A stretch of DNA of 64,000 bases from Promethearchaeota archaeon (GTDB lineage Archaea; Asgardarchaeota; Lokiarchaeia; Sigyniarchaeales; SOKP01). The stretch covers positions 33,670-97,669 of the forward strand of contig JAHPZE010000016.1 of the NCBI GenBank assembly GCA_019058365.1, in the 5' to 3' direction. The notes below the pieces were generated by a model, which was given only the letters and a program-made list of their open reading frames with translations, was not told where the DNA came from and did not search any database. The position numbers and the translations under genes were made by a program. Shown here in pieces: positions 8,094 to 18,725 of this stretch (its first letter is position 1; every line of letters starts with the position of its first letter).

Positions 8094-9518
8094 TTAGATA
8101 ATTTTCCAGCGAGGACCATTTGGTGTATCTTCAAGTTGTATGCCTGCTTCTCTCAAATTATCTCTTATCTCATCACTAATTGCATAATTTTTTTCTTTTC
8201 TTGCTTTTTCACGAATACCTATAATTACATCCATTAGTTCATTTAACTTTATATCTACACTTTTTTCTTTCTTATAGAAATCAAGACCGAAAATATTGAG
8301 AAGTTCAAGAAGGGTATCACGTGCTGTGACAAGGATTTCTTTTTTATTCTCCAAGGAACTATTGATTTTTTTAATAAATTCATAGATAGCTGCAAGAGCT
8401 TTCGGATTGTTAAAATCATCATCCATTGACTCCTCAAAATCACTCCTTACAGTTTTAATAGCTTCTTCAAGAGTTTCCTCATCTCCTCCAGATGAATGCT
8501 CAATTGCGGTTAAACAATTTCTTATTTTTTCAATATTATTCTTCGCATTTTCAATAACTTTAGGATTCCAATCTACTGCAGACCGATAATGACCAGATAC
8601 AAGTCCCATTCGCACAACGAGTCCTCCATATTCATCAATTAATTCTCGAGCTGTGACATAATTTCCAAGACTTTTACTCATTTTTTTTCCATTTAATGTG
8701 ATAAATTCAGCATGCATCCAATAGTTAACAAATTTTTTTCCGGTTGCGGCTTCAGATTGAGCGATTTCATTAGGGTGATGAGTAGGGATATGATCAATTC
8801 CTCCACAGTGAATGTCTAGCGTTTCACCTAAGAATTTCATGCCCATAACTGAACATTCAAGGTGCCATCCAGGATAACCCTCACCCCATGGTGAATTCCA
8901 TCTCATGCTATGGACTTGATCCCCTTTTTGTGCATTTAACCACAAAGCGAAATCAAAATAGTTCTTTTTTAAAGGATCCTGATCCACTCGTGCTTGTGCT
9001 TTCTCTTCATCAAGCTTTAATCTCGCAAGTTTTCCATAATCTTTAAATTTCGCAGTATTATAATACACATTTCCTTGTACTTCATAAGCATAACCTTTTT
9101 CTAACAAAATTTGAATTATTTCAATCATTTCAGGAATTATAGATGTTGCTCTAGGGGAAATATTTGGTCTTTGGATGTTTAAATCATCGATTACTTGCCA
9201 ATATTCTTGAATTTGATTATCTACTAGCTCCCAAGGATTGATTTTTTGTTCTTTTGCTCTTTTCTCTATTTTATCTTCACCTTGATCTGCATCATCTGTC
9301 AAATGGCCAACATCAGTGAAATTTTGAACATGAAAAACATCATAACCCTTGTATCGTAGGTATCTAATAACTACATCCCAAGAACTATAAGTTCTTGCAT
9401 TGCCGATGTGTACATCATCATATACGGTCTGCCCACAAGTATAAATTCTAACTCGGCCTTCTTCTATAGGTTTAAAAATTTCCTTTTGCCGAGTCATAGT
9501 GTTATAGATTTTAAGCAT
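8094..9518 (-). CDS. cysS: cysteinyl-tRNA synthetase
   Basis: YTCGQTVYDDVHIGNAR (HIGH), GYPGWHLECS, HHPNEIAQSE and KMSKS motifs. Confidence 0.97.
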   Translation of the reverse strand: MLKIYNTMTRQKEIFKPIEEGRVRIYTCGQTVYDDVHIGNARTYSSWDVVIRYLRYKGYDVFHVQNFTDVGHLTDDADQGEDKIEKRAKEQKINPWELVDNQIQEYWQVIDDLNIQRPNISPRATSIIPEMIEIIQILLEKGYAYEVQGNVYYNTAKFKDYGKLARLKLDEEKAQARVDQDPLKKNYFDFALWLNAQKGDQVHSMRWNSPWGEGYPGWHLECSVMGMKFLGETLDIHCGGIDHIPTHHPNEIAQSEAATGKKFVNYWMHAEFITLNGKKMSKSLGNYVTARELIDEYGGLVVRMGLVSGHYRSAVDWNPKVIENAKNNIEKIRNCLTAIEHSSGGDEETLEEAIKTVRSDFEESMDDDFNNPKALAAIYEFIKKINSSLENKKEILVTARDTLLELLNIFGLDFYKKEKSVDIKLNELMDVIIGIREKARKEKNYAISDEIRDNLREAGIQLEDTPNGPRWKII

Positions 9519-9595
9519 AAAATAATAAATAATAGGAAAAAATAAGAATTTTACGGAAGAATCTAAGATTTTTCTTCTTCTTTTTTAATTTTGCC

Positions 9596-12460
9596 TCAAT
9601 TTTTTACCTCTATAAATACCTCAACAACTTTATTATCAATTTTTAATTTCTTTATATCTTCTTTACCTTCTAAATTTTGAATGATAATATCGGCTTGTAT
9701 CATCTTTTTAATTTTTTCTTCATGTTTTTCAAGAGCTTCTGAAATATCTTTATCAATTATTTTTAAATACAAAATAATTCGATTTTTCGTTGAGAGATTC
9801 AATTGTTTTCTATAATTATTTAAATGCCTAATCAAATTTCTAGCAATTCCTTCCAACCTTAACGTTGTTGTAATTTTGGTATCTAATTCTATTAAAATTT
9901 CAGACTCTTCTCCCTTTTCAATATTTACTTTTCTCACATTTATAGCTTCTGCTATAATATCTAAATATTTCTTTTCAAGATTTACTCCTTTTATTGTAAC
10001 CTTATTTAGAACCTGTCTAACTGGAATTTTAGAATTATCTCTTAATTCTAAGGATCTTTTTACTATTTCTCTTGTTAGTTCCATATTTTTTAGAACTTCG
10101 CTTTTAATCAATGTCTCATCAAATTCTGGCCAAAACTCTAAATGGACGGATTCAAAATTTATACTCCCTTGTTCTATCAATTTCTTGTATATTATCTCTG
10201 AAATAAAAGGAGTTAGAGGAGCTAAGAGTTTTGACAAATTATACAGCGTATACGACAGTGTATTCATCGCTGATAGTTTTTCATTTATAATCTCACTTTT
10301 AAATCGATTTCTACTGTGTTTGATGTACCACGTAGACAGATCCTCAATGAAATTGAAAAATAATCTACTTGTTTCTGCTGTGTCATAATCATTCATGAGT
10401 TGTGTAATATCCCGAATAAGTTTATTCAATAAACTGACAATCCATTGATCTAAAATATTATCTGAATGCGTTATATCCATAGTAATGTCATCAATATCAA
10501 TCAATGAATAGAACTTTAGAATATTAATTAACAATAAATTAAATCGTCGGTAAACCTGTTTTACAATTTCTTCTTTAAAATTTAAATCTTGTGCCCTCAT
10601 CAATTGGGATGACAAAAGATATACTCTTAAAGCATCAGCTCCATACTTTTCAATCATTACCTCTGGATTAGGGAAATTTCTTTTGGATTTTGCCATCTTC
10701 GTTCCATCTTCAGCAAGTATATTGCCATTTACAACTACATTTTTAAACGGAATATCATCAAATAATAAGACAGATATTACATGCATATAGTAAAACCACG
10801 CTCTAACCTGTCCAATATACTCAGAAACAAAATCACTTGGATAGTTATGCTTAAACCATTCCGAATTTTCAAATGGATAATGTTTTGCAGCATATGGCAT
10901 TGATCCTGATTCCAGCCAGCAATCAAAAACCTCTGGTACACGGGTCATTACTTTACTGCAACTGGGACATTTAAGATGGATCATATCAACTATATGTCTA
11001 TGAAGATCTAAATCATCGGGGACCTCTTCAATTGCATTTTCCTGCAATTCATTAATGGATCCAATGACTTTAATTTGTTTACATTCTTCACATTCCCAAA
11101 TGGGCATAGCTGTAGCCCAAAATCTATTTCGTGAAATACACCAATCAGGAGCGGTATTCACTATACTTTCATATCTTCTAGAAATCTCTTTAGGATACCA
11201 TTTGATCTTTTCATTAGTTTTTAGAAGCTTCTGTTTTATTTGCTGAATGTCTATAAACCAGGCATCAAGAGCATTATAAATTAATGGAGTATCACATCTA
11301 TAACAGAATGGATAAGAATGTGAGTAGTCTTCTGAACTAAATAATAGATTTCGTTGTTGCAAATCCACTAATACTTGTTTATCTACATCTTTAAACCATA
11401 ATCCAATCCAATTTCTTGGACCTTTGGCTAGATTGCCATGCTCATCAATGTGTTGAATTATAGGTAAATCATATTTCTTAATCATTTCATAATCAAATTC
11501 TCCATAAATTGCTATGTGTATAATTCCTGTTCCCTCATTAGATAATACCTCATCACCACCATCAATAACAAAATGCCCTTTTTTGTTGGTATCAAGAGAA
11601 ATTTGATATAAAGGCTTATATTCTATATTAAGTAGGTCTTTTCCTTTAAATTCATTAACAATTTCATAGTCTTTTTTGATTATATCCAGTTGGGTTTTTA
11701 TCAATATTAAATATTCATCATCCAGCTTTATCTTAACATAATCTTGCTCACTATTTACAGCTAAAGCTACATTTCCAATTAACGTCCAAGGCGTAGTAGT
11801 CCAAGCGAGAAAAAATGTCATTGATTCTTCATTCAATTTGAATTTTACTGTTATTGATTGTTCACTAATGTCTTTATAGCTATTATCCATCGAAATCTCG
11901 GAATTCGAAAGTGGTGTTTCACAACGAGGACAATAAAATAAAATTTTCTTACCTCTATACACTAAACCATCATTATATATTTTTTTAAAAATGTACCATA
12001 TGGTTTCCATATAAGTATTATCCATGGTTTTATAAGAATTATTGAACTCTATCCACTTACCCATTCGTTCAACGGTTTTTTTCCATTCATTTGTATACCA
12101 AAGCACTTTTGATCGACAGAATTCATTGAAATTATCTATACCCATTTCGTATATTTCATTTTTTTGCTTCAAATTAAGGGCTTCTTCACATATACTCTCT
12201 ATTGGCAAACCATGACAATCCCAGCCCCATCTTCTCTCACAATGATACCCTTTCATTGTCCAATATCTTGGAAATACATCCTTAGTTACAAAACTTAAAA
12301 TATGACCATAATGTGGCAATCCCGTTGCAAAAGGAGGTCCATCATAAAATATATATGGATTTTCCTTTGGTGTTTGTTCGACACTTTTTTCAAAAATCTT
12401 ATTATCTTTCCAAAATTGTATAAGTTCCTGTTCTTTTTCAATATATGAAATATTTAACAC
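9596..12460 (-). CDS. ileS: isoleucyl-tRNA synthetase (type 2, archaeal/eukaryote-like)
   Basis: DGPPFATGLPHYGH, GWDCHGLPIE, WTTTPWTL editing motif, WCISRNRFW, DCWLESGSMPY and KMAKS. Confidence 0.96.
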   Translation of the reverse strand: MLNISYIEKEQELIQFWKDNKIFEKSVEQTPKENPYIFYDGPPFATGLPHYGHILSFVTKDVFPRYWTMKGYHCERRWGWDCHGLPIESICEEALNLKQKNEIYEMGIDNFNEFCRSKVLWYTNEWKKTVERMGKWIEFNNSYKTMDNTYMETIWYIFKKIYNDGLVYRGKKILFYCPRCETPLSNSEISMDNSYKDISEQSITVKFKLNEESMTFFLAWTTTPWTLIGNVALAVNSEQDYVKIKLDDEYLILIKTQLDIIKKDYEIVNEFKGKDLLNIEYKPLYQISLDTNKKGHFVIDGGDEVLSNEGTGIIHIAIYGEFDYEMIKKYDLPIIQHIDEHGNLAKGPRNWIGLWFKDVDKQVLVDLQQRNLLFSSEDYSHSYPFCYRCDTPLIYNALDAWFIDIQQIKQKLLKTNEKIKWYPKEISRRYESIVNTAPDWCISRNRFWATAMPIWECEECKQIKVIGSINELQENAIEEVPDDLDLHRHIVDMIHLKCPSCSKVMTRVPEVFDCWLESGSMPYAAKHYPFENSEWFKHNYPSDFVSEYIGQVRAWFYYMHVISVLLFDDIPFKNVVVNGNILAEDGTKMAKSKRNFPNPEVMIEKYGADALRVYLLSSQLMRAQDLNFKEEIVKQVYRRFNLLLINILKFYSLIDIDDITMDITHSDNILDQWIVSLLNKLIRDITQLMNDYDTAETSRLFFNFIEDLSTWYIKHSRNRFKSEIINEKLSAMNTLSYTLYNLSKLLAPLTPFISEIIYKKLIEQGSINFESVHLEFWPEFDETLIKSEVLKNMELTREIVKRSLELRDNSKIPVRQVLNKVTIKGVNLEKKYLDIIAEAINVRKVNIEKGEESEILIELDTKITTTLRLEGIARNLIRHLNNYRKQLNLSTKNRIILYLKIIDKDISEALEKHEEKIKKMIQADIIIQNLEGKEDIKKLKIDNKVVEVFIEVKN

Positions 12461-12730
12461 CTAACTTGAGATTTTTTTATTATCATTAAATATTCTAACT
12501 TAAATACATTCTAAATAAAAATTGTTTAACATTAGGGAGATTATATCGCAATTCTAAGTTATTTTATTCATGAAGTAGGATGTGGAGTAAAGGTTACGAG
12601 AATTCACTTCACAAATAAATGAAGTTAGATAATAATAATCGCGGATATGATCTTTATCATATTTTGTGCAAAACCTAAGAATTTAGTATTTTTATTCATA
12701 ACATCCACATCCACGTTATATTTTAAATAT
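12461..12730 (-). promoter_or_regulatory. putative attenuator-like ileS leader (uORF, alternative stems, U-tract, upstream TATA-like box)
   Basis: Segments A (12625-12620, ACUUCA), B (12611-12606, UGAAGU) and C (12576-12571, ACUUCA). A 9-bp inverted repeat at 12704-12712/12578-12586. U-tract at ~12521-12513 and TTTAAAA at 12727-12721. Confidence 0.6.
12625..12699 (-). CDS. putative Ile-rich leader peptide (uORF) of ileS, MNKNTKFLGFAQNMIKIISAIIII*
   Basis: Translated by hand: ATG at 12699, TAA at 12627-12625. The last ten sense codons are ATA AAG ATC ATA TCC GCG ATT ATT ATT ATC. It is on the same strand as ileS and 164 nt upstream of its start. Confidence 0.75.
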   Translation of the reverse strand: MNKNTKFLGFAQNMIKIISAIIII

Positions 12731-12780
12731 AGTAAAATGATCTAAAAAATATTTCGGTATTTTCTAGATTTATATCATCA

Positions 12781-14784
12781 TTAATCTAAAAATATATAAT
12801 TATGAGCAATTTTCCTTTTGTCCCTTCCAGCAAGGATGTGAATATGTTTGATTGTTCTAAGTGAGTCCTTACTAAAATTATCAATTGGAATATAAACCAG
12901 TTCTCTATTTTTAATTCCAGCTAGTGAGTAGAAATATTTACGAGGTGGTTTATTTGCTACATAGGCTATGTACCTTTCTTTTGAATAAATAATTGCAGCC
13001 TTAAGTAAGCGGTCTGCTTTATTCTTAGTATCTTTGTATTCATAATCCATATGTGGGTCAAAAATGGATCTTAGAAATAGTGCTGGAAAGATTGATAATA
13101 ATCCTCCAACTTCTACATGCGTAATTCCTGGACCAATAACATAATCTCCAGGATTTGTTGAATAGAAAGCCATATCACTCTCCCTCTCATGTTCTGCCCA
13201 CCAAGTCAATTTGTACGGATATTTTTCTATTTCTCCATCATCCTTATCAAATATCACTATAATTGTATCAGTTTTACCTTGAATCTGTTGAATATTCTGC
13301 ACATAAATCTTCTTTTTAAAAGCCCAATTCCTAATAGTTTCCTTAATTGCAATTCCATCCATTAAGCTAGATTTGAATTCTTCTATTTTGATTCTCTGAT
13401 TTTTTAAATTTTTAATTGCTTTTTTTCTTATAAAAGCAAAGTAGTCTTCTTCTAAAATATCTTCAGGAGGCCAAGAAACTGTATAATCTTTACCTTCTTC
13501 CCATTTTTCTCGCCATTCACCTGGATATTTTTCTTGAGATTTTTCCTTTAATGGTAGGTTTTTTTCTTTTCCATACCCATAAGGATGATATCTTCTTAAT
13601 TTTATATACCGACCACTTGGATCATAACCACCTTCTATATTCATCTTCAATGTTTCATAATTATCACTTTCATCATCATAGGGATATTTTGTTGCTTTTT
13701 CCATAACTTTCCAAGCATAATCATCATCAATAATATTCTTTGAGGCAATTAACAATTGATACAAATTTGGTAATAATCTTTGTTCTGATAATGAGAGATT
13801 TCTTGAATATTGAAAAAGAGTTTTTAATTTATGAAGATCTACAAATTCCTTGTATTCCTCTTCATACTCATATTTAGATTTTAATAAGATCTTCCTAATA
13901 TGTTCAATCTTATTATAGGAATGCAGAATTTTATAAACTTCTTCGGGAGTTTCGATATTTTCTAATTTTTCTTTTGAGAACTTCTCTCGAAATTTTAACC
14001 ATTTATATGTATGATAGGGTAATTCTCCTAAAAGAAACCTGGCGTCAGAACCATTTATATTGTAAATTTTCACATATTTATGAGGAATTAAATCCAATTC
14101 CACATCTCGAACTTTTTTTGGATTGTCTAAATAATATTTCACGCTTTCCCAATGAGCCATACCAATAATAAGTAAAATCCTATGATATAATGGTGCCATC
14201 TTTAAAAGATGAGCTGCCATATATTTTTCTCTAAGAATATCTTTTTCAGTATAATCGTACTCTTTATCGAAATTTTCTTGATTTTTAAGAAAATCCTCTA
14301 AATTTGTCTTATCTTTAAGTTTATCTTTTTTATCCTTGAACTCTTCCGTAAAATGTTTTGATATTTGCAGATAAAACTTCTGAAGACCAATTTGATTAAT
14401 CGCGTAATCATCTGGAAACTTGAAACTTGGAGGCAAATACTCAGAGACAGACAGATCGATGAATTCGATTGGAATATTATGTTCGAGACCAATTCTTATA
14501 CCTTCTATTATAGAATCTCCTGGATCTATTGGAATGAAGTTTAACTTTTTAGGATTTAATGTATCAGCATATCCAATTAAAGATAAAAAAGGTAATCTTT
14601 CAATAGCCTCCATTACTTCATCTTGCATATTATTTGGCAATTCTACAGCAATTATATCCGGAAATACTTTAAATAACGCTGTACGTACCAATTTCGCAAA
14701 CTCTATACGCGAATGAAAAGTGGGAATAACGTAAATATTTTTAAATTTAATAAATGGATTCTCATCCATGTGAATCTTTATCAT
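12781..14784 (-). CDS. conserved hypothetical protein with TraB/ChaN-like N-terminal domain, partner of the MoxR ATPase
   Basis: PTFH...PDIIAVELP...REKYMAAHL...ILLIIGMAHW pattern. Overlaps the end of the upstream AAA gene. Confidence 0.55.
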   Translation of the reverse strand: MIKIHMDENPFIKFKNIYVIPTFHSRIEFAKLVRTALFKVFPDIIAVELPNNMQDEVMEAIERLPFLSLIGYADTLNPKKLNFIPIDPGDSIIEGIRIGLEHNIPIEFIDLSVSEYLPPSFKFPDDYAINQIGLQKFYLQISKHFTEEFKDKKDKLKDKTNLEDFLKNQENFDKEYDYTEKDILREKYMAAHLLKMAPLYHRILLIIGMAHWESVKYYLDNPKKVRDVELDLIPHKYVKIYNINGSDARFLLGELPYHTYKWLKFREKFSKEKLENIETPEEVYKILHSYNKIEHIRKILLKSKYEYEEEYKEFVDLHKLKTLFQYSRNLSLSEQRLLPNLYQLLIASKNIIDDDYAWKVMEKATKYPYDDESDNYETLKMNIEGGYDPSGRYIKLRRYHPYGYGKEKNLPLKEKSQEKYPGEWREKWEEGKDYTVSWPPEDILEEDYFAFIRKKAIKNLKNQRIKIEEFKSSLMDGIAIKETIRNWAFKKKIYVQNIQQIQGKTDTIIVIFDKDDGEIEKYPYKLTWWAEHERESDMAFYSTNPGDYVIGPGITHVEVGGLLSIFPALFLRSIFDPHMDYEYKDTKNKADRLLKAAIIYSKERYIAYVANKPPRKYFYSLAGIKNRELVYIPIDNFSKDSLRTIKHIHILAGRDKRKIAHNYIFLD

Positions 14785-15718
14785 TTTTTTTTACGAATTT
14801 ATCATAATAATCATTAACTTCATCAAGGTCTCTAAATACTTTAAATGAGATTGATTCACTTTGTTTTTTCAAAAACTCTTCATAATTTCCTGGTAAGTAC
14901 TTTAATGCAGCTTCTTCTAATATTTGAATTATGGCATTTTCTAATGTACTCTTTTCAATTATATCTTGATTTTCTTTAATCAACAACCTTGATTTAATAT
15001 AATATCTTAAGATATTAATCCCATCTCTAACAGTATAATCGTCATGCTTGTGAGCGTTCTGAAGGAAATTTGCGCAATATTCTAATATTTCCTCTGAAGC
15101 AAAGGGCAAATTGTACTTTAAAATTTTTAGTTCATCTATTTTATTCGGGAATTCTATTAAAATACGAGGATTCAATCTTGACATTATATATTCTGGGATT
15201 TCATATGTACTAGAATCAGCGTTCATAGTTATACATAACCGGAATTCCGGATGAGCATAAATTCTTACACCCGCAATAATACTTTCAACATATCGTCTTT
15301 TATCCATCAATGATGCTAATGACGCCCAACTTTTTTCACTCATCCTATTTCCCTCATCCAGTAAACATACCCCTCCTTTTACCATGGCAGACACTAAAGA
15401 ACTAGCAATATAAACTATTTTATTATCTGAAGCAATAACAGGACTGATTAGTAGATCTTCGGGGCGGGTATCCATTGTACATTGAAACATATATACATCT
15501 TTTCCTAATCTTTTTCCAGCAGCATAAGCAAGTGTCGTTTTGCCTATACCCGGCTTTCCTAGAATTCGAGGATTGAGGGGTAAATCATCTTTATCGACAA
15601 CCATCCATGCTGCTTTTAATTGGTTAATTAAATCATCATTTCCAACCCATTGCATATCAACATGAGCTGGTTCAGATAAAAGTAATTCTATATCTGAAAT
15701 TGTTACTTTCTCTGGCAC
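14762..15718 (-). CDS. MoxR-family AAA+ ATPase
   Basis: Walker A GKPGIGKT, QCTMDTRPEDL, Walker B LLDEGNR, HPEFRLCITMN, and an arginine finger in YIMSRL. Confidence 0.85.
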   Translation of the reverse strand: MPEKVTISDIELLLSEPAHVDMQWVGNDDLINQLKAAWMVVDKDDLPLNPRILGKPGIGKTTLAYAAGKRLGKDVYMFQCTMDTRPEDLLISPVIASDNKIVYIASSLVSAMVKGGVCLLDEGNRMSEKSWASLASLMDKRRYVESIIAGVRIYAHPEFRLCITMNADSSTYEIPEYIMSRLNPRILIEFPNKIDELKILKYNLPFASEEILEYCANFLQNAHKHDDYTVRDGINILRYYIKSRLLIKENQDIIEKSTLENAIIQILEEAALKYLPGNYEEFLKKQSESISFKVFRDLDEVNDYYDKFVKKNDKDSHG

Positions 15719-15897: not shown

Positions 15898-16449
15898 ATG
15901 TCTGGGGATCATCAAAAATATATTGTATTCAAAATAGCTCTTCTTGGGGATACTGCCGTCGGAAAAACCTCTCTGGTTGATATGTATACCCAACATCGAT
16001 TTAAAGAGGATTACAAACCGACTTTAGGAGTTTCAATATGTGTGAAAGAATTAACAAGCAAAAGAATAAATACTCAAATTCGATTGATCATTTGGGATAT
16101 TGCTGGTCAAGAAAAATATGTTTTGAGTAGAAAGATGTTTTTTCAAGGAGTTATGGGAGCCCTTCTTGTGTATGATATAACCAGGTATTCTACATTTGAA
16201 AATATTGAATCTAAATGGTTAATAGATTTAAATGAATATGGTGACCAAGATTTAGCTTATATTTTAATCGGAAATAAGATTGATTTAGAAGATTCAAAAG
16301 TGGTTGCATTTAAAGATGGTGAAAAGCTAGGTCAGAAAATTAATGCAAGTGCTTTTATTGAAACAAGTGCTAAATATGGTGAAAATGTAGAAAAAGCTTT
16401 TGAAAAATTAGTTTTTCAAATATTAAAGAATGAAGGAATTGAAACTTAA
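15898..16449 (+). CDS. Rab-like small GTPase
   Basis: GDTAVGKTS, PTLG, WDIAGQE, NKID, ETSAK. No C-terminal Cys. Confidence 0.93.
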   Translation: MSGDHQKYIVFKIALLGDTAVGKTSLVDMYTQHRFKEDYKPTLGVSICVKELTSKRINTQIRLIIWDIAGQEKYVLSRKMFFQGVMGALLVYDITRYSTFENIESKWLIDLNEYGDQDLAYILIGNKIDLEDSKVVAFKDGEKLGQKINASAFIETSAKYGENVEKAFEKLVFQILKNEGIET

Positions 16450-16465
16450 AAAAAGGTAAATAAAT

Positions 16466-16897
16466 ATGAAGAGTATCGAAACTAAAACTAAACGAGTTAT
16501 TATCGGAAAGATTGAACCTGATGAAGATTTAATAGATGCTATAATCGTCATAGTAAATAAACACAGAATTACCTCTGGATTGATTAATTGTATTGGAGCT
16601 TTAAAAAAATTCACAATTGGATATTTTGATATTGAATCTAGAAGATATTTAACTAAGACAATTGATGAGTATGTAGAATTGGTATCTTGTATGGGAAATA
16701 TATTCTTCAAGAATGGCGAACCAATAGTTCATTTACATTTCTCTATAGGAACAAGGGATTATAATATTATTGGAGGTCATTTACTCCAACCAAGTATAGT
16801 CTCAGTAACAGGCGAAGTTTGTATCTTAGAAATTGAAAAAAAGTTAGAAAGATCAAATGATATGAAATTTAATTTATCATTATTAGATTTGGAATGA
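16466..16897 (+). CDS. PPC/DUF296 domain protein
   Basis: CIGAL...ELVSCMGNI...PIVHLH...IIGGHL...TGEV signature. Confidence 0.88.
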   Translation: MKSIETKTKRVIIGKIEPDEDLIDAIIVIVNKHRITSGLINCIGALKKFTIGYFDIESRRYLTKTIDEYVELVSCMGNIFFKNGEPIVHLHFSIGTRDYNIIGGHLLQPSIVSVTGEVCILEIEKKLERSNDMKFNLSLLDLE

Positions 16898-16903
16898 TTT
16901 AAA

Positions 16904-17458
16904 ATGACAGAAAGAGATAAGAGGAAATGGGCAATTAAATTAACTGTATTAGGAGATCAAGCAGTAGGGAAAACCTCTTTAATTAAAAAATATGTTACTG
17001 GAGCTTTTGAAATGGATTATCATCCAACATTAGGAGTAGATATAACACTTAAAGATCTCGTTCTCGATGAGATTAATTCTGAGGTTCGCCTAATCTTGTG
17101 GGATATTGCTGGTCAAAATAAATATGAATTGACTAGAAAAATGTTTTTTCAAGGATGTGTTGGAGCTTTATTAATCTATGATGTGACAAGACCCTCAACT
17201 TTTAAAAATGTAACTGCGAAATGGTTAAATGACTTTAAACAATATGGACGCTCAAACGCAATATTTATTCTGATTGGGAATAAAGTAGATATGGAGGATT
17301 CAATAAAAGTACATTCTGAAGACGGAATAAAGTTATCCAAAGAGCTAAAGGCGATAGATTTTATTGAAACAAGTGCAAAATATGGTAAAAATGTTGAAAA
17401 AGCATTTGAAAAATTAGTTATGCATGTATTAAACAATCTTAGTGGAAAATCAAATTAA
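16904..17458 (+). CDS. Rab-like small GTPase
   Basis: GDQAVGKTS, WDIAGQN, NKVD, ETSAK. Confidence 0.93.
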   Translation: MTERDKRKWAIKLTVLGDQAVGKTSLIKKYVTGAFEMDYHPTLGVDITLKDLVLDEINSEVRLILWDIAGQNKYELTRKMFFQGCVGALLIYDVTRPSTFKNVTAKWLNDFKQYGRSNAIFILIGNKVDMEDSIKVHSEDGIKLSKELKAIDFIETSAKYGKNVEKAFEKLVMHVLNNLSGKSN

Positions 17459-17475
17459 AAAAAATTAAAACCGAA

Positions 17476-18042
17476 ATGATTGGAGATTATAAAGGAATTG
17501 TAAAAAATAAGGTTGTCATAGCACTACTCCAGGCATATCATGATATCCTTGATTATGATGGAATGAAATCAATTCTAAGAGAAGCAGAAATGATTTATCT
17601 AAAGGATATAGGAAACGAAAATCCTAATGATATAATAGATTATTTTTCTTTTAAAAAAATCATTTCTGCTCAAAATTGTTTATTATATGATTCTTCAAAA
17701 CTCCTCTATGAAATTGGTAAAAAAATGGCATTTTATTTATTCCCATTTGGTAAAAGTCTTGAAGAGATAATCAATGAAATTAATACTTCTATTATTACAG
17801 ATTGGAAAGTTGAAATTTTAGATAATAGTGAAAATGAAATAACCGTTCAAGTTGATAGGTGCATCTTCTGTTCTGAGATTGGAGTTCCTTGTGATTTATT
17901 TATTGGATTTTTAGTTCATTCATTACAGAAATCATTACCCTCAGAACAAATGGTTACATGCAAAAGAGAAAATGAAGATATAAACGATCCAACTCACAAT
18001 AGTTTTATTGTTAAATTAAAAATTGGGAAAAATATTAAATAA
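17476..18042 (+). CDS. V4R/H-NOX-fold protein
   Basis: LLYEIGKKMA...ITVQVDRCIFC.....CDLFIGFL pattern typical of V4R domains. Confidence 0.6.
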   Translation: MIGDYKGIVKNKVVIALLQAYHDILDYDGMKSILREAEMIYLKDIGNENPNDIIDYFSFKKIISAQNCLLYDSSKLLYEIGKKMAFYLFPFGKSLEEIINEINTSIITDWKVEILDNSENEITVQVDRCIFCSEIGVPCDLFIGFLVHSLQKSLPSEQMVTCKRENEDINDPTHNSFIVKLKIGKNIK

Positions 18043-18170
18043 TTTTTTGAAGAAGATAATATTAGTATAATTTATTGAAGAAATCCTTATATTTGTAATT
18101 AAAAAAATATCATATATCAAATTTGAAATAAAGTATTAAATATACTTACAACAAAATAATAAATTGCACA

Positions 18171-18725
18171 ATGACAAGAGAAGAAACTAGTGAATTACGT
18201 GAATTCGTTTTTAAAATAACTATTTTAGGAGATGCAGCAGTGGGCAAAACTTCATTGATTAGCCAATTTGTAGAAGGATCATTTCAAGAAGATTATAAAC
18301 CCACATTAGGAGCTAATATTGTACGAAAAGATGTAAATCTTGATAATGCAAGAGTCAGATTAATCATGTGGGATTTAGCTGGTCAAGAAAAATATCAAGT
18401 TGTTCGTAGTATGTACTTTCAAGGATGTCAGGGCGCTCTACTCGTTTATGACGTAACGCGCTATAATACATTAGATAATATTAATACGAAATGGTTAAGA
18501 GACTTTAAAAAACATGTAAAAAAGAAAGGAGCATTCATCTTAATAGGAAATAAAAGTGATTTAAAAGATCAGAGAGTAATACCTACAGAACGAGGACAAG
18601 AATTAGCTACTAAAATTAAAGCTAGCCATTTTATTGAAACAAGTGCAAAACTCGGAGAAAATATTGAAGAGGCTTTTTCTCTCCTAGTACATCAAATTTT
18701 AAGTGATCATGGGGTTAATCTTTAA
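18171..18725 (+). CDS. Rab-like small GTPase
   Basis: GDAAVGKTS, WDLAGQE, NKSD, ETSAK. Confidence 0.93.
   Translation: MTREETSELREFVFKITILGDAAVGKTSLISQFVEGSFQEDYKPTLGANIVRKDVNLDNARVRLIMWDLAGQEKYQVVRSMYFQGCQGALLVYDVTRYNTLDNINTKWLRDFKKHVKKKGAFILIGNKSDLKDQRVIPTERGQELATKIKASHFIETSAKLGENIEEAFSLLVHQILSDHGVNL

Follow-up and report, generated by a model that had tools for sequence, protein, structure and literature searches.

An upstream open reading frame (uORF) rich in isoleucine codons precedes ileS2, the second isoleucyl-tRNA synthetase (IleRS) gene of a Promethearchaeota archaeon, and the leader to which it belongs is real and conserved, and very probably a gauge of isoleucine-tRNA. In the reading that we prefer, with a probability of roughly 0.6, the leader lets ribosomes gauge the charging of Ile-tRNA and thereby controls ileS2 in cis, with an OFF state set by FttA (aCPSF1) at a U-tract; the broader claim, that the leader senses Ile-tRNA and controls ileS2, is judged highly likely from the comparison of genomes. 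The original prediction, that ribosomes on an isoleucine-rich leader peptide gauge the supply of Ile-tRNA, is strongly supported in its core by a conserved cognate leader, covarying alternative helices and product-matched leaders on other genes, while several of its details fail.

The window, meaning the whole stretch of DNA that was analysed, is 64,000 nt long (assembly GCA_019058365.1, contig JAHPZE010000016.1, positions 33,670-97,669 of the forward strand), and all positions given here are positions within it. For comparison, 36 distinct ileS2 leader loci were collected from Asgard genomes; the leader-bearing genomes are kin, belonging to two genera, so that locus counts are not independent. 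The features are as follows, in the direction of transcription:

12741-12758, minus strand: putative leader promoter with BRE and TATA elements (T-rich box at 12748-12741), its T5 core invariant at 18 of 18 loci
12704-12714, minus strand: segment 1, which includes the Shine-Dalgarno sequence (SD) of the uORF and is the strand common to helices 1:2 and 1:4; nearly invariant over the 36 loci
12695-12702, minus strand: segment 1b, over the uORF start codon, which extends helix 1:4 by pairing with 12600-12593
12625-12699, minus strand: the leader uORF, 24 codons
12641-12650, minus strand: segment 2, in the uORF directly 5' of the AUU run, which pairs with segment 1 (RNAalifold consensus)
12631-12639, minus strand: three invariant AUU codons, the proposed sensor
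12605-12617, minus strand: segment 3, the 5' arm of the post-stop helix 3:5
12593-12600, minus strand: the strand that pairs with segment 1b, within the loop of helix 3:5, which is rich in pyrimidines
12575-12586, minus strand: segment 4, the alternative partner of segment 1 (helix 1:4), with a three-base overlap with segment 5
12565-12577, minus strand: segment 5, the 3' arm of helix 3:5 (RNAalifold consensus)
12511-12523, minus strand: U-tract (U5 at 12521-12517), a candidate FttA/aCPSF1 termination signal or an internal TATA box
12449-12462, minus strand: SD of ileS2 (12462-12458) and its probable AUU start (12451-12449), from the comparison of homologous codons
9596-12451, minus strand: ileS2, a second, type-2-like isoleucyl-tRNA synthetase of about 951 aa (above the TIGR00392 cut-off)
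9538-9556, minus strand: conserved motif before cysS, probably its own promoter, kept in relatives
8094-9518, minus strand: cysS, single copy

A TraB-like gene and ileS2 are separated by 320 nt, and the uORF lies in this gap. As had been read from the sequence, a minus-strand ORF lies there at 12699-12625 with the translation originally given; seven of its last ten codons are Ile (2 ATA, 2 ATC and 3 ATT), four of them in tandem before the TAA, and 164 nt separate its end from the first in-frame GTG of the synthetase gene (12460). Up to the probable true start of ileS2 (ATT, 12451) the distance is 173 nt. The argument that such a run is not a matter of chance also held. When intergenic stretches of 150 nt or more, upstream of genes, were taken from a crude gene map of the whole genome (n = 1,815), an III run near a stop was found in 22 of them, and at least seven Ile among the last ten codons in one, namely this ORF. 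The run alone is therefore not rare, but the density of Ile and the cognate position are. Transcription of the leader would start near 12720, as inferred from the putative promoter, whose T5 core is retained at the 6 of 18 loci that have a gene other than the TraB-like one upstream (a divergent Rab-like gene in five). Genome-wide, TATA-like words show no positional peak, so no general promoter matrix could be derived.

In relatives, where the original prediction had proposed to look for it, the uORF is intact at all 36 orthologous loci. Its length is 20-25 codons, and 24 codons in 32 loci. Each of the four indels (-3, -12, +3 and -6) is a multiple of three, the start is ATG or, in one locus, GTG, and the stop swaps between TAA and TGA. 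Both other frames contain stops at every one of the 36 loci, and random sequence of the same composition would keep an open frame only 19% of the time. The SD (12712-12705) forms seven of eight pairs with the 3' end of the 16S rRNA (contig C35), in a position that agrees with the genome-wide SD register. In the N-terminal codons, variation is about equal at the three codon positions (0.68, 0.66 and 0.61), so that the peptide sequence itself seems unimportant while its translation seems to matter. That the uORF is translated and under selection can be regarded as very likely.

What does not vary is the codon core. The mixture of Ile codons had been taken as part of the signal, a view that has to be abandoned: over the 36 loci the conserved core is ATT ATT ATT, without synonymous exchange, whereas the fourth Ile codon (12630-12628) is variable, and the upstream ATC and ATA codons are held by base pairing. 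In the coding sequence of ileS2, none of 17 invariant Ile columns keeps a single codon. AUU and AUC are read by a tRNA with a GAU anticodon, and AUA by a separate tRNA; this split in decoding would explain why AUA is absent from the core, though not fully why AUC is. The internal AUG once suggested as an alternative start did not hold up either, since it occurs in only 19 of 33 full-length leaders.

Segment 1 can pair either with segment 2 or with segment 4, and the alignment speaks for both helices. In helix 1:2, 96% of cells are paired and three pairs show two-sided change; for helix 1:4, which is the minimum-energy fold in this genome (z -2.8), the figures are 98% and three pairs. The extension of helix 1:4 by segment 1b (80% of cells paired, three pairs with two-sided change) is weak alone, at a mean of +0.6 kcal/mol, and where it pairs with 12593-12600, a position that is C-G in most relatives is U-A in this genome. 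Helix 3:5 is paired in 93% of cells, with two-sided change in 5 of its 13 pairs. Taken as complete folds, 1:2+3:5 (94% of cells paired, eight pairs with two-sided change) and 1:4+1b (91%, six pairs) both beat 500 of 500 shuffles in cells paired and in covariation score, as well as all slid controls, although these controls ignore kinship. Taken singly, all three helices also beat every shuffle and every slid control. Three-way changes, which keep the competing pairings, are the most telling: one clade alters 12714, 12575 and 12607 together, so that 1:4 and 3:5 both survive, and locus L061 alters 12712, 12643 and 12578 together, in segments 1, 2 and 4.

The placing of segment 2 is what would couple these helices to the ribosome. 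Its end is 2 nt short of the first AUU and 14-23 nt short of the stop. Given the size of the ribosome footprint, a ribosome on the AUU codons would cover segment 2, and one at the stop would largely leave it free; only the three codons that would cover segment 2 are fixed. When segment 2 is masked in an equilibrium folding model, the probability of helix 1:4 is about 0.95. Without a ribosome, helix 1:2 is predicted to stand at about 0.8 until segment 4 appears, but at equilibrium 1:4 wins even then (median 0.95). Equilibrium folding thus does not reproduce the switch, and the OFF fold would have to be a kinetic trap. The core of 1:4 and helix 3:5 overlap by only two to three bases, and could coexist as a pseudoknot.

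The preferred mechanism would run as follows. With charged tRNA-Ile in plenty, the ribosome would clear the AUU run and segment 2 would re-pair with segment 1; helix 3:5 would then form as it is transcribed, and the U-rich, untranslated RNA beyond it would be terminated early, most likely by FttA/aCPSF1 (the OFF state). A drop in charging, through Ile shortage or inhibition of IleRS, would stall the ribosome on the AUU codons and mask segment 2, whereupon segment 1 would capture segment 4, helix 3:5 would be blocked and transcription would proceed into ileS2 (the ON state). We infer this polarity, in which an AUU stall switches ileS2 on, with moderate confidence.

The same Ile sensor might be wired the opposite way, which seems unlikely to us: in starvation a queue of ribosomes that builds up behind the stalled one would mask segment 1 and helix 3:5 would protect the U-rich RNA (ON), whereas under replete conditions helix 1:4 would stop leader translation and the naked RNA would be terminated (OFF). 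Such wiring would make sense of 1:4+1b, which hides both the SD and the AUG of the leader and is the equilibrium fold, and of the distance from the AUG to the first AUU, which at 60 nt in 32 of 36 loci comes close to two ribosome footprints; in the four remaining loci, however, that distance falls to 48-57 nt. In the leuS, leuA and cimA leaders described below, the post-stop helix starts inside the footprint of a terminating ribosome, as would fit a helix that signals ON, and the inclusion of the stop codon in the leuS helix counts against our best model by suggesting the opposite polarity there. At ileS2, on the other hand, the core of helix 3:5 starts about 10 nt past the uORF stop, too far for a ribosome standing there to block. 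The opposite wiring would also require repeated initiation within seconds, and would leave the strongly conserved helix 1:2 without a clear use.

As for the output of the preferred mechanism, we put termination by FttA at U-tracts at about even odds. The bacterial kind of attenuator to which the leader had first been likened fails in its terminator, since a scan for sigma-70 promoters and terminators found no hairpin followed by U; after helix 3:5 the sequence is A-rich and the U-tract comes about 45 nt further on. FttA itself is encoded in the genome (PF17214 above cut-off, in a 638-aa frame on contig C40), where U-tracts mark gene ends. Its signal consists of single-stranded U4 tracts, two being needed for efficient binding, and a lokiarchaeal aCPSF1 terminates with U-tracts and works in M. 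maripaludis (PMC8716108). The FttA window is 36 nt, and the leader U-tract lies beyond that distance from helix 3:5; competition between FttA and the ribosome is still put forward as a hypothesis (PMC11616081). At 31 of 36 loci the spacer contains a run of at least five U, which shuffled sequences have in 35% of cases and upstream regions of the genome in 54%; the run stands mostly 40-50 nt past segment 5, which it tracks more closely than it does the start codon. At least two U4 tracts are found in the spacer at 58% of loci, like the genomic background (53-63%), with one in this genome and none at three loci. By folding prediction, exposure of the U-tract is greater when the leader is in the 1:2+3:5 state (16 loci versus 4; 0.60 versus 0.19 in this genome), the mean effect being small (0.64 versus 0.55).

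One five-genome clade (L056, L057, L059, L060 and L083) has lost the loop U4 tracts and, in most members, the spacer tract, while compensation in its helices is complete. No canonical ileS was found in these five genomes. A link between loss of the U-tract and loss of canonical ileS is suggestive, in one clade only, and seven other genomes in which canonical ileS was not found keep the tract. The clade branches early among ileS2 sequences, and its spacer is 40 nt shorter, with few or no U-tracts.

The persistence of helices where U-tracts are lost would also suit a different output of the same Ile sensor, in which helix 3:5 or its exposed loop is a site of cleavage or decay, or in which the switch sets initiation at the weak AUU of ileS2. 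The second version draws on the start codon: a weak AUU or AUA start is probable in about half of the loci. At the homologous position, 15 loci have ATG, 16-17 have ATT and 3 have ATA. The annotated GTG of ileS2 is part of the SD, and the true start is probably the AUU at 12451; a weak AUU start is forced in L015 and L062, where an in-frame stop follows the GTG, two codons before the AUU, and no canonical start follows until after the HIGH motif. Against such an output, the ribosome-binding site of ileS2 has the same predicted accessibility in both states (0.45 versus 0.43), a folding prediction on which a translational, SD-sequestering attenuator was likewise set aside; its start is 173 nt away from the uORF stop; and no leader segment complements its SD well, as judged by eye, with the conserved-helix scan covering the core leader only. 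We consider this output about as doubtful as the opposite wiring.

More improbable still is that the leader is transcribed separately as a small RNA, with ileS2 driven by a promoter of its own whose TATA box, some 45 nt before the start, would be the spacer U-tract, so that any control would be partial or in trans. TATA-like T/A runs do stand 38-55 nt before the ileS2 start, much like the 41-nt spacing of the leader box, but the position of the tract follows segment 5 more than the start codon, no BRE-like bases are conserved before it, and the leader was found solely beside ileS2, as one strong copy. The leader model has matches in two genera of one family only, among 151 genomes of the class, and the matched loci adjoin ileS2 in 30 of 30 cases checked, staying with it where the upstream gene differs. 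A second, weak match in G006 (E 0.005), which precedes neither an IleRS gene nor a gene of the Ile pathway, was dropped.

The gene downstream had been called ileS. It does encode an IleRS, but not the canonical archaeal one: it is a second, type-2 enzyme that appears to have been acquired laterally. Two IleRS genes score above the TIGR00392 cut-off in the genome, the other being a canonical 1048-aa copy on contig C50 that is 33% identical, and the canonical gene has no Ile leader. The ileS2 sequences of Promethearchaeia form one clade, which groups with IleRS mostly from DPANN archaea (SH-aLRT 98-100) and then with those of CPR and of other bacteria, separately from canonical IleRS. Lateral acquisition would be the simplest reading of this tree. 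Neither the leader motif nor an Ile-run uORF was found before the DPANN, Methanosarcinales, CPR and gammaproteobacterial relatives screened for a donor origin. The signature motif of ileS2 is HYGH, and its scores against the curated NCBIfam models of MupA and MupB (713 and 677 bits) stay below the cut-off of 1900. That ileS2 is always a spare enzyme was rejected, as 12 of the 36 genomes with the leader, some of them 97-100% complete, yielded no canonical ileS; in some genomes ileS2 may be the only IleRS. In L025, from the single-contig genome G006, ileS2 is broken after about 515 codons, possibly by a sequencing error, and canonical ileS was not found there either.

Leaders matched to their products stand before other genes as well, as a repeat of the search on leuS and on amino-acid genes revealed. 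The archaeal-type leuS (G000 contig C17, L005:2501-2820, minus strand) is preceded, at about 170 nt, by a 28-codon uORF ending in a Leu run, and such a uORF recurs at 29 of 29 loci of the genus (L212-L239). A similar helix lies just 5' of the Leu run; the post-stop helix, which takes in the stop codon, encloses a conserved U-rich loop and has a possible purine-rich partner downstream. A bacterial-type leuS is also present in the genome, on contig C35. Before the leuA-type genes of relatives (L151-L180), the scan found Leu-run uORFs at 29 of 30 loci, one match being doubtful; they use all six Leu codons and end about 180 nt before the DTTLRDG motif, and a hairpin region follows. The start of the leuA leader in L160 is apparently TTG. 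Before cimA of relatives (L182-L208) there are Ile-rich uORFs in 24 of 25 loci, with 73% ATT; they begin without an obvious SD and may be leaderless. The leuA genes of relatives carry no Ile leader, and the covariance model of the ileS2 leader has no match in 52 loci, among them cimA, leuA and canonical ileS.

The ATT/TTA repeat is identical in these leaders and its frame differs, being Ile before ileS2 and cimA and Leu before leuS and leuA. No argument for reading of the codons by the ribosome is stronger than this agreement of frame and product across the four gene families. Although the three AUU codons admit no synonymous exchange, a constraint far stricter than in coding Ile columns, and the repeat recurs in a different frame in leuS leaders, this agreement, the conserved SD, start, stop and frame-keeping indels, the use of all six Leu codons before leuA and the single qualifying region in 1,815 make it very improbable that the repeat is an RNA-level signal such as a protein-binding site with an incidental frame, or a chance product of AT-rich DNA. 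Whether ileS2, leuS, leuA and cimA share a family-specific set of attenuators that link ribosome stalling to FttA termination, the ileS2 switch having arisen after a DPANN-like transfer, is more tentative, and we would rate it slightly below even chances.

In the 100%-complete genome G000, ilvD is present and no HMGL-like gene (leuA, cimA) was found; the source organism may depend on imported Ile and Leu.

How does the element compare with known systems? It has the uORF with its own SD, the tandem cognate codons and the exclusive helices (their masking being modelled) of a classical leader-peptide attenuator. That label was nevertheless rejected, as the intrinsic G+C-rich hairpin followed by a U run is missing; the element resembles bacterial attenuators in the way it works but falls outside the classical kind. 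A T-box riboswitch was rejected as well, no T-box match being found in 12300-12900 at E values up to 5, and an Rfam search of the same interval gave only a chance snoRNA match (E 3.3). Bacterial synthetase attenuators include that of pheST in gamma-proteobacteria and those predicted for leuS and trpS in Streptomyces (PMC1262725). The archaeal leader resembles them in its short uORF, its cognate codons near the stop, its alternative helices and the synthetase downstream. It differs in that it has no intrinsic terminator, in that the shared strand is the leader's own SD, upstream of the uORF, and in that its host is an archaeon with FttA; no similarity in sequence or in Rfam was found. In Streptomyces, an auxiliary, antibiotic-resistant TrpRS is reportedly under ribosome-mediated attenuation, in work by Vecchione and Sello from 2010; that case shares a second synthetase under a cognate leader peptide, and differs in amino acid and domain of life. 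In Priestia megaterium, a type-2 IleRS stands beside the housekeeping one and rises about 70-fold under mupirocin, proposedly through uncharged tRNA-Ile (bioRxiv 10.1101/2022.02.09.479832). The archaeal ileS2 leader would serve a role like that of this inducible IleRS2. Control of the Priestia ileS1/ileS2 pair is by T-box and CodY, whereas no T-box was found in the archaeal leader and 12 of 36 genomes yielded no canonical ileS. Leader control can also depend on a factor, as in the Salmonella corA leader (PMC13675443), and mycobacteria have Cys-run leaders without terminators (PMC1262725). With these the ileS2 leader shares alternative folds or cognate uORFs without an intrinsic terminator, the proposed factor here being the CPSF73-type nuclease FttA instead of Rho.

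Archaea couple transcription with translation. For trpY of Methanothermobacter thermautotrophicus, a two-codon leader has reportedly been proposed, an archaeal cognate mini-leader that encodes a dipeptide and would act on translation; unlike the ileS2 leader, it is said to be without a conserved multi-helix switch. No published amino-acid leader attenuator in archaea was found in the full-text literature, in reviews of archaeal coupling and in archaeal Ribo-seq papers, a search outside which most subscription papers lie. If our reading is true, amino-acid attenuation would have its first archaeal case, and competition between FttA and the ribosome could be tested on a natural system, an element of 150 nt whose named codons and helices make the question accessible in Methanococcus or Thermococcus. 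It would also mean that a transferred synthetase gained a new control element, and that bacterial-style regulatory logic was rebuilt without a hairpin terminator in an archaeal group close to eukaryotes.

Downstream, the 77 nt stated between the stop of the synthetase gene and the start of cysS were confirmed. Joint control of cysS with ileS, which had been suggested as possible, is doubtful: the motif before cysS is kept even where ileS2 is not the neighbour, as in G020, whose cysS follows a different gene, and to judge from this conserved motif cysS is probably transcribed from a promoter of its own. In L056 there is no downstream motif of the cysS type. Within the genus, cysS has a patchy distribution. 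Of the five genus genomes that lack ileS2, four yielded no cysS; among them, G012 has SepRS, and in G016 neither SepRS nor cysS was found with the queries used. No SepRS was found in the present genome.

Upstream of the leader, a MoxR-type AAA+ ATPase gene overlaps the 667-aa TraB-like gene (12781-15718 of the window). Beyond them (15898-18725) lies one cluster of three Rab-like small GTPase ORFs and two other short genes, and in five relatives it is a divergent Rab-like gene that borders the leader.
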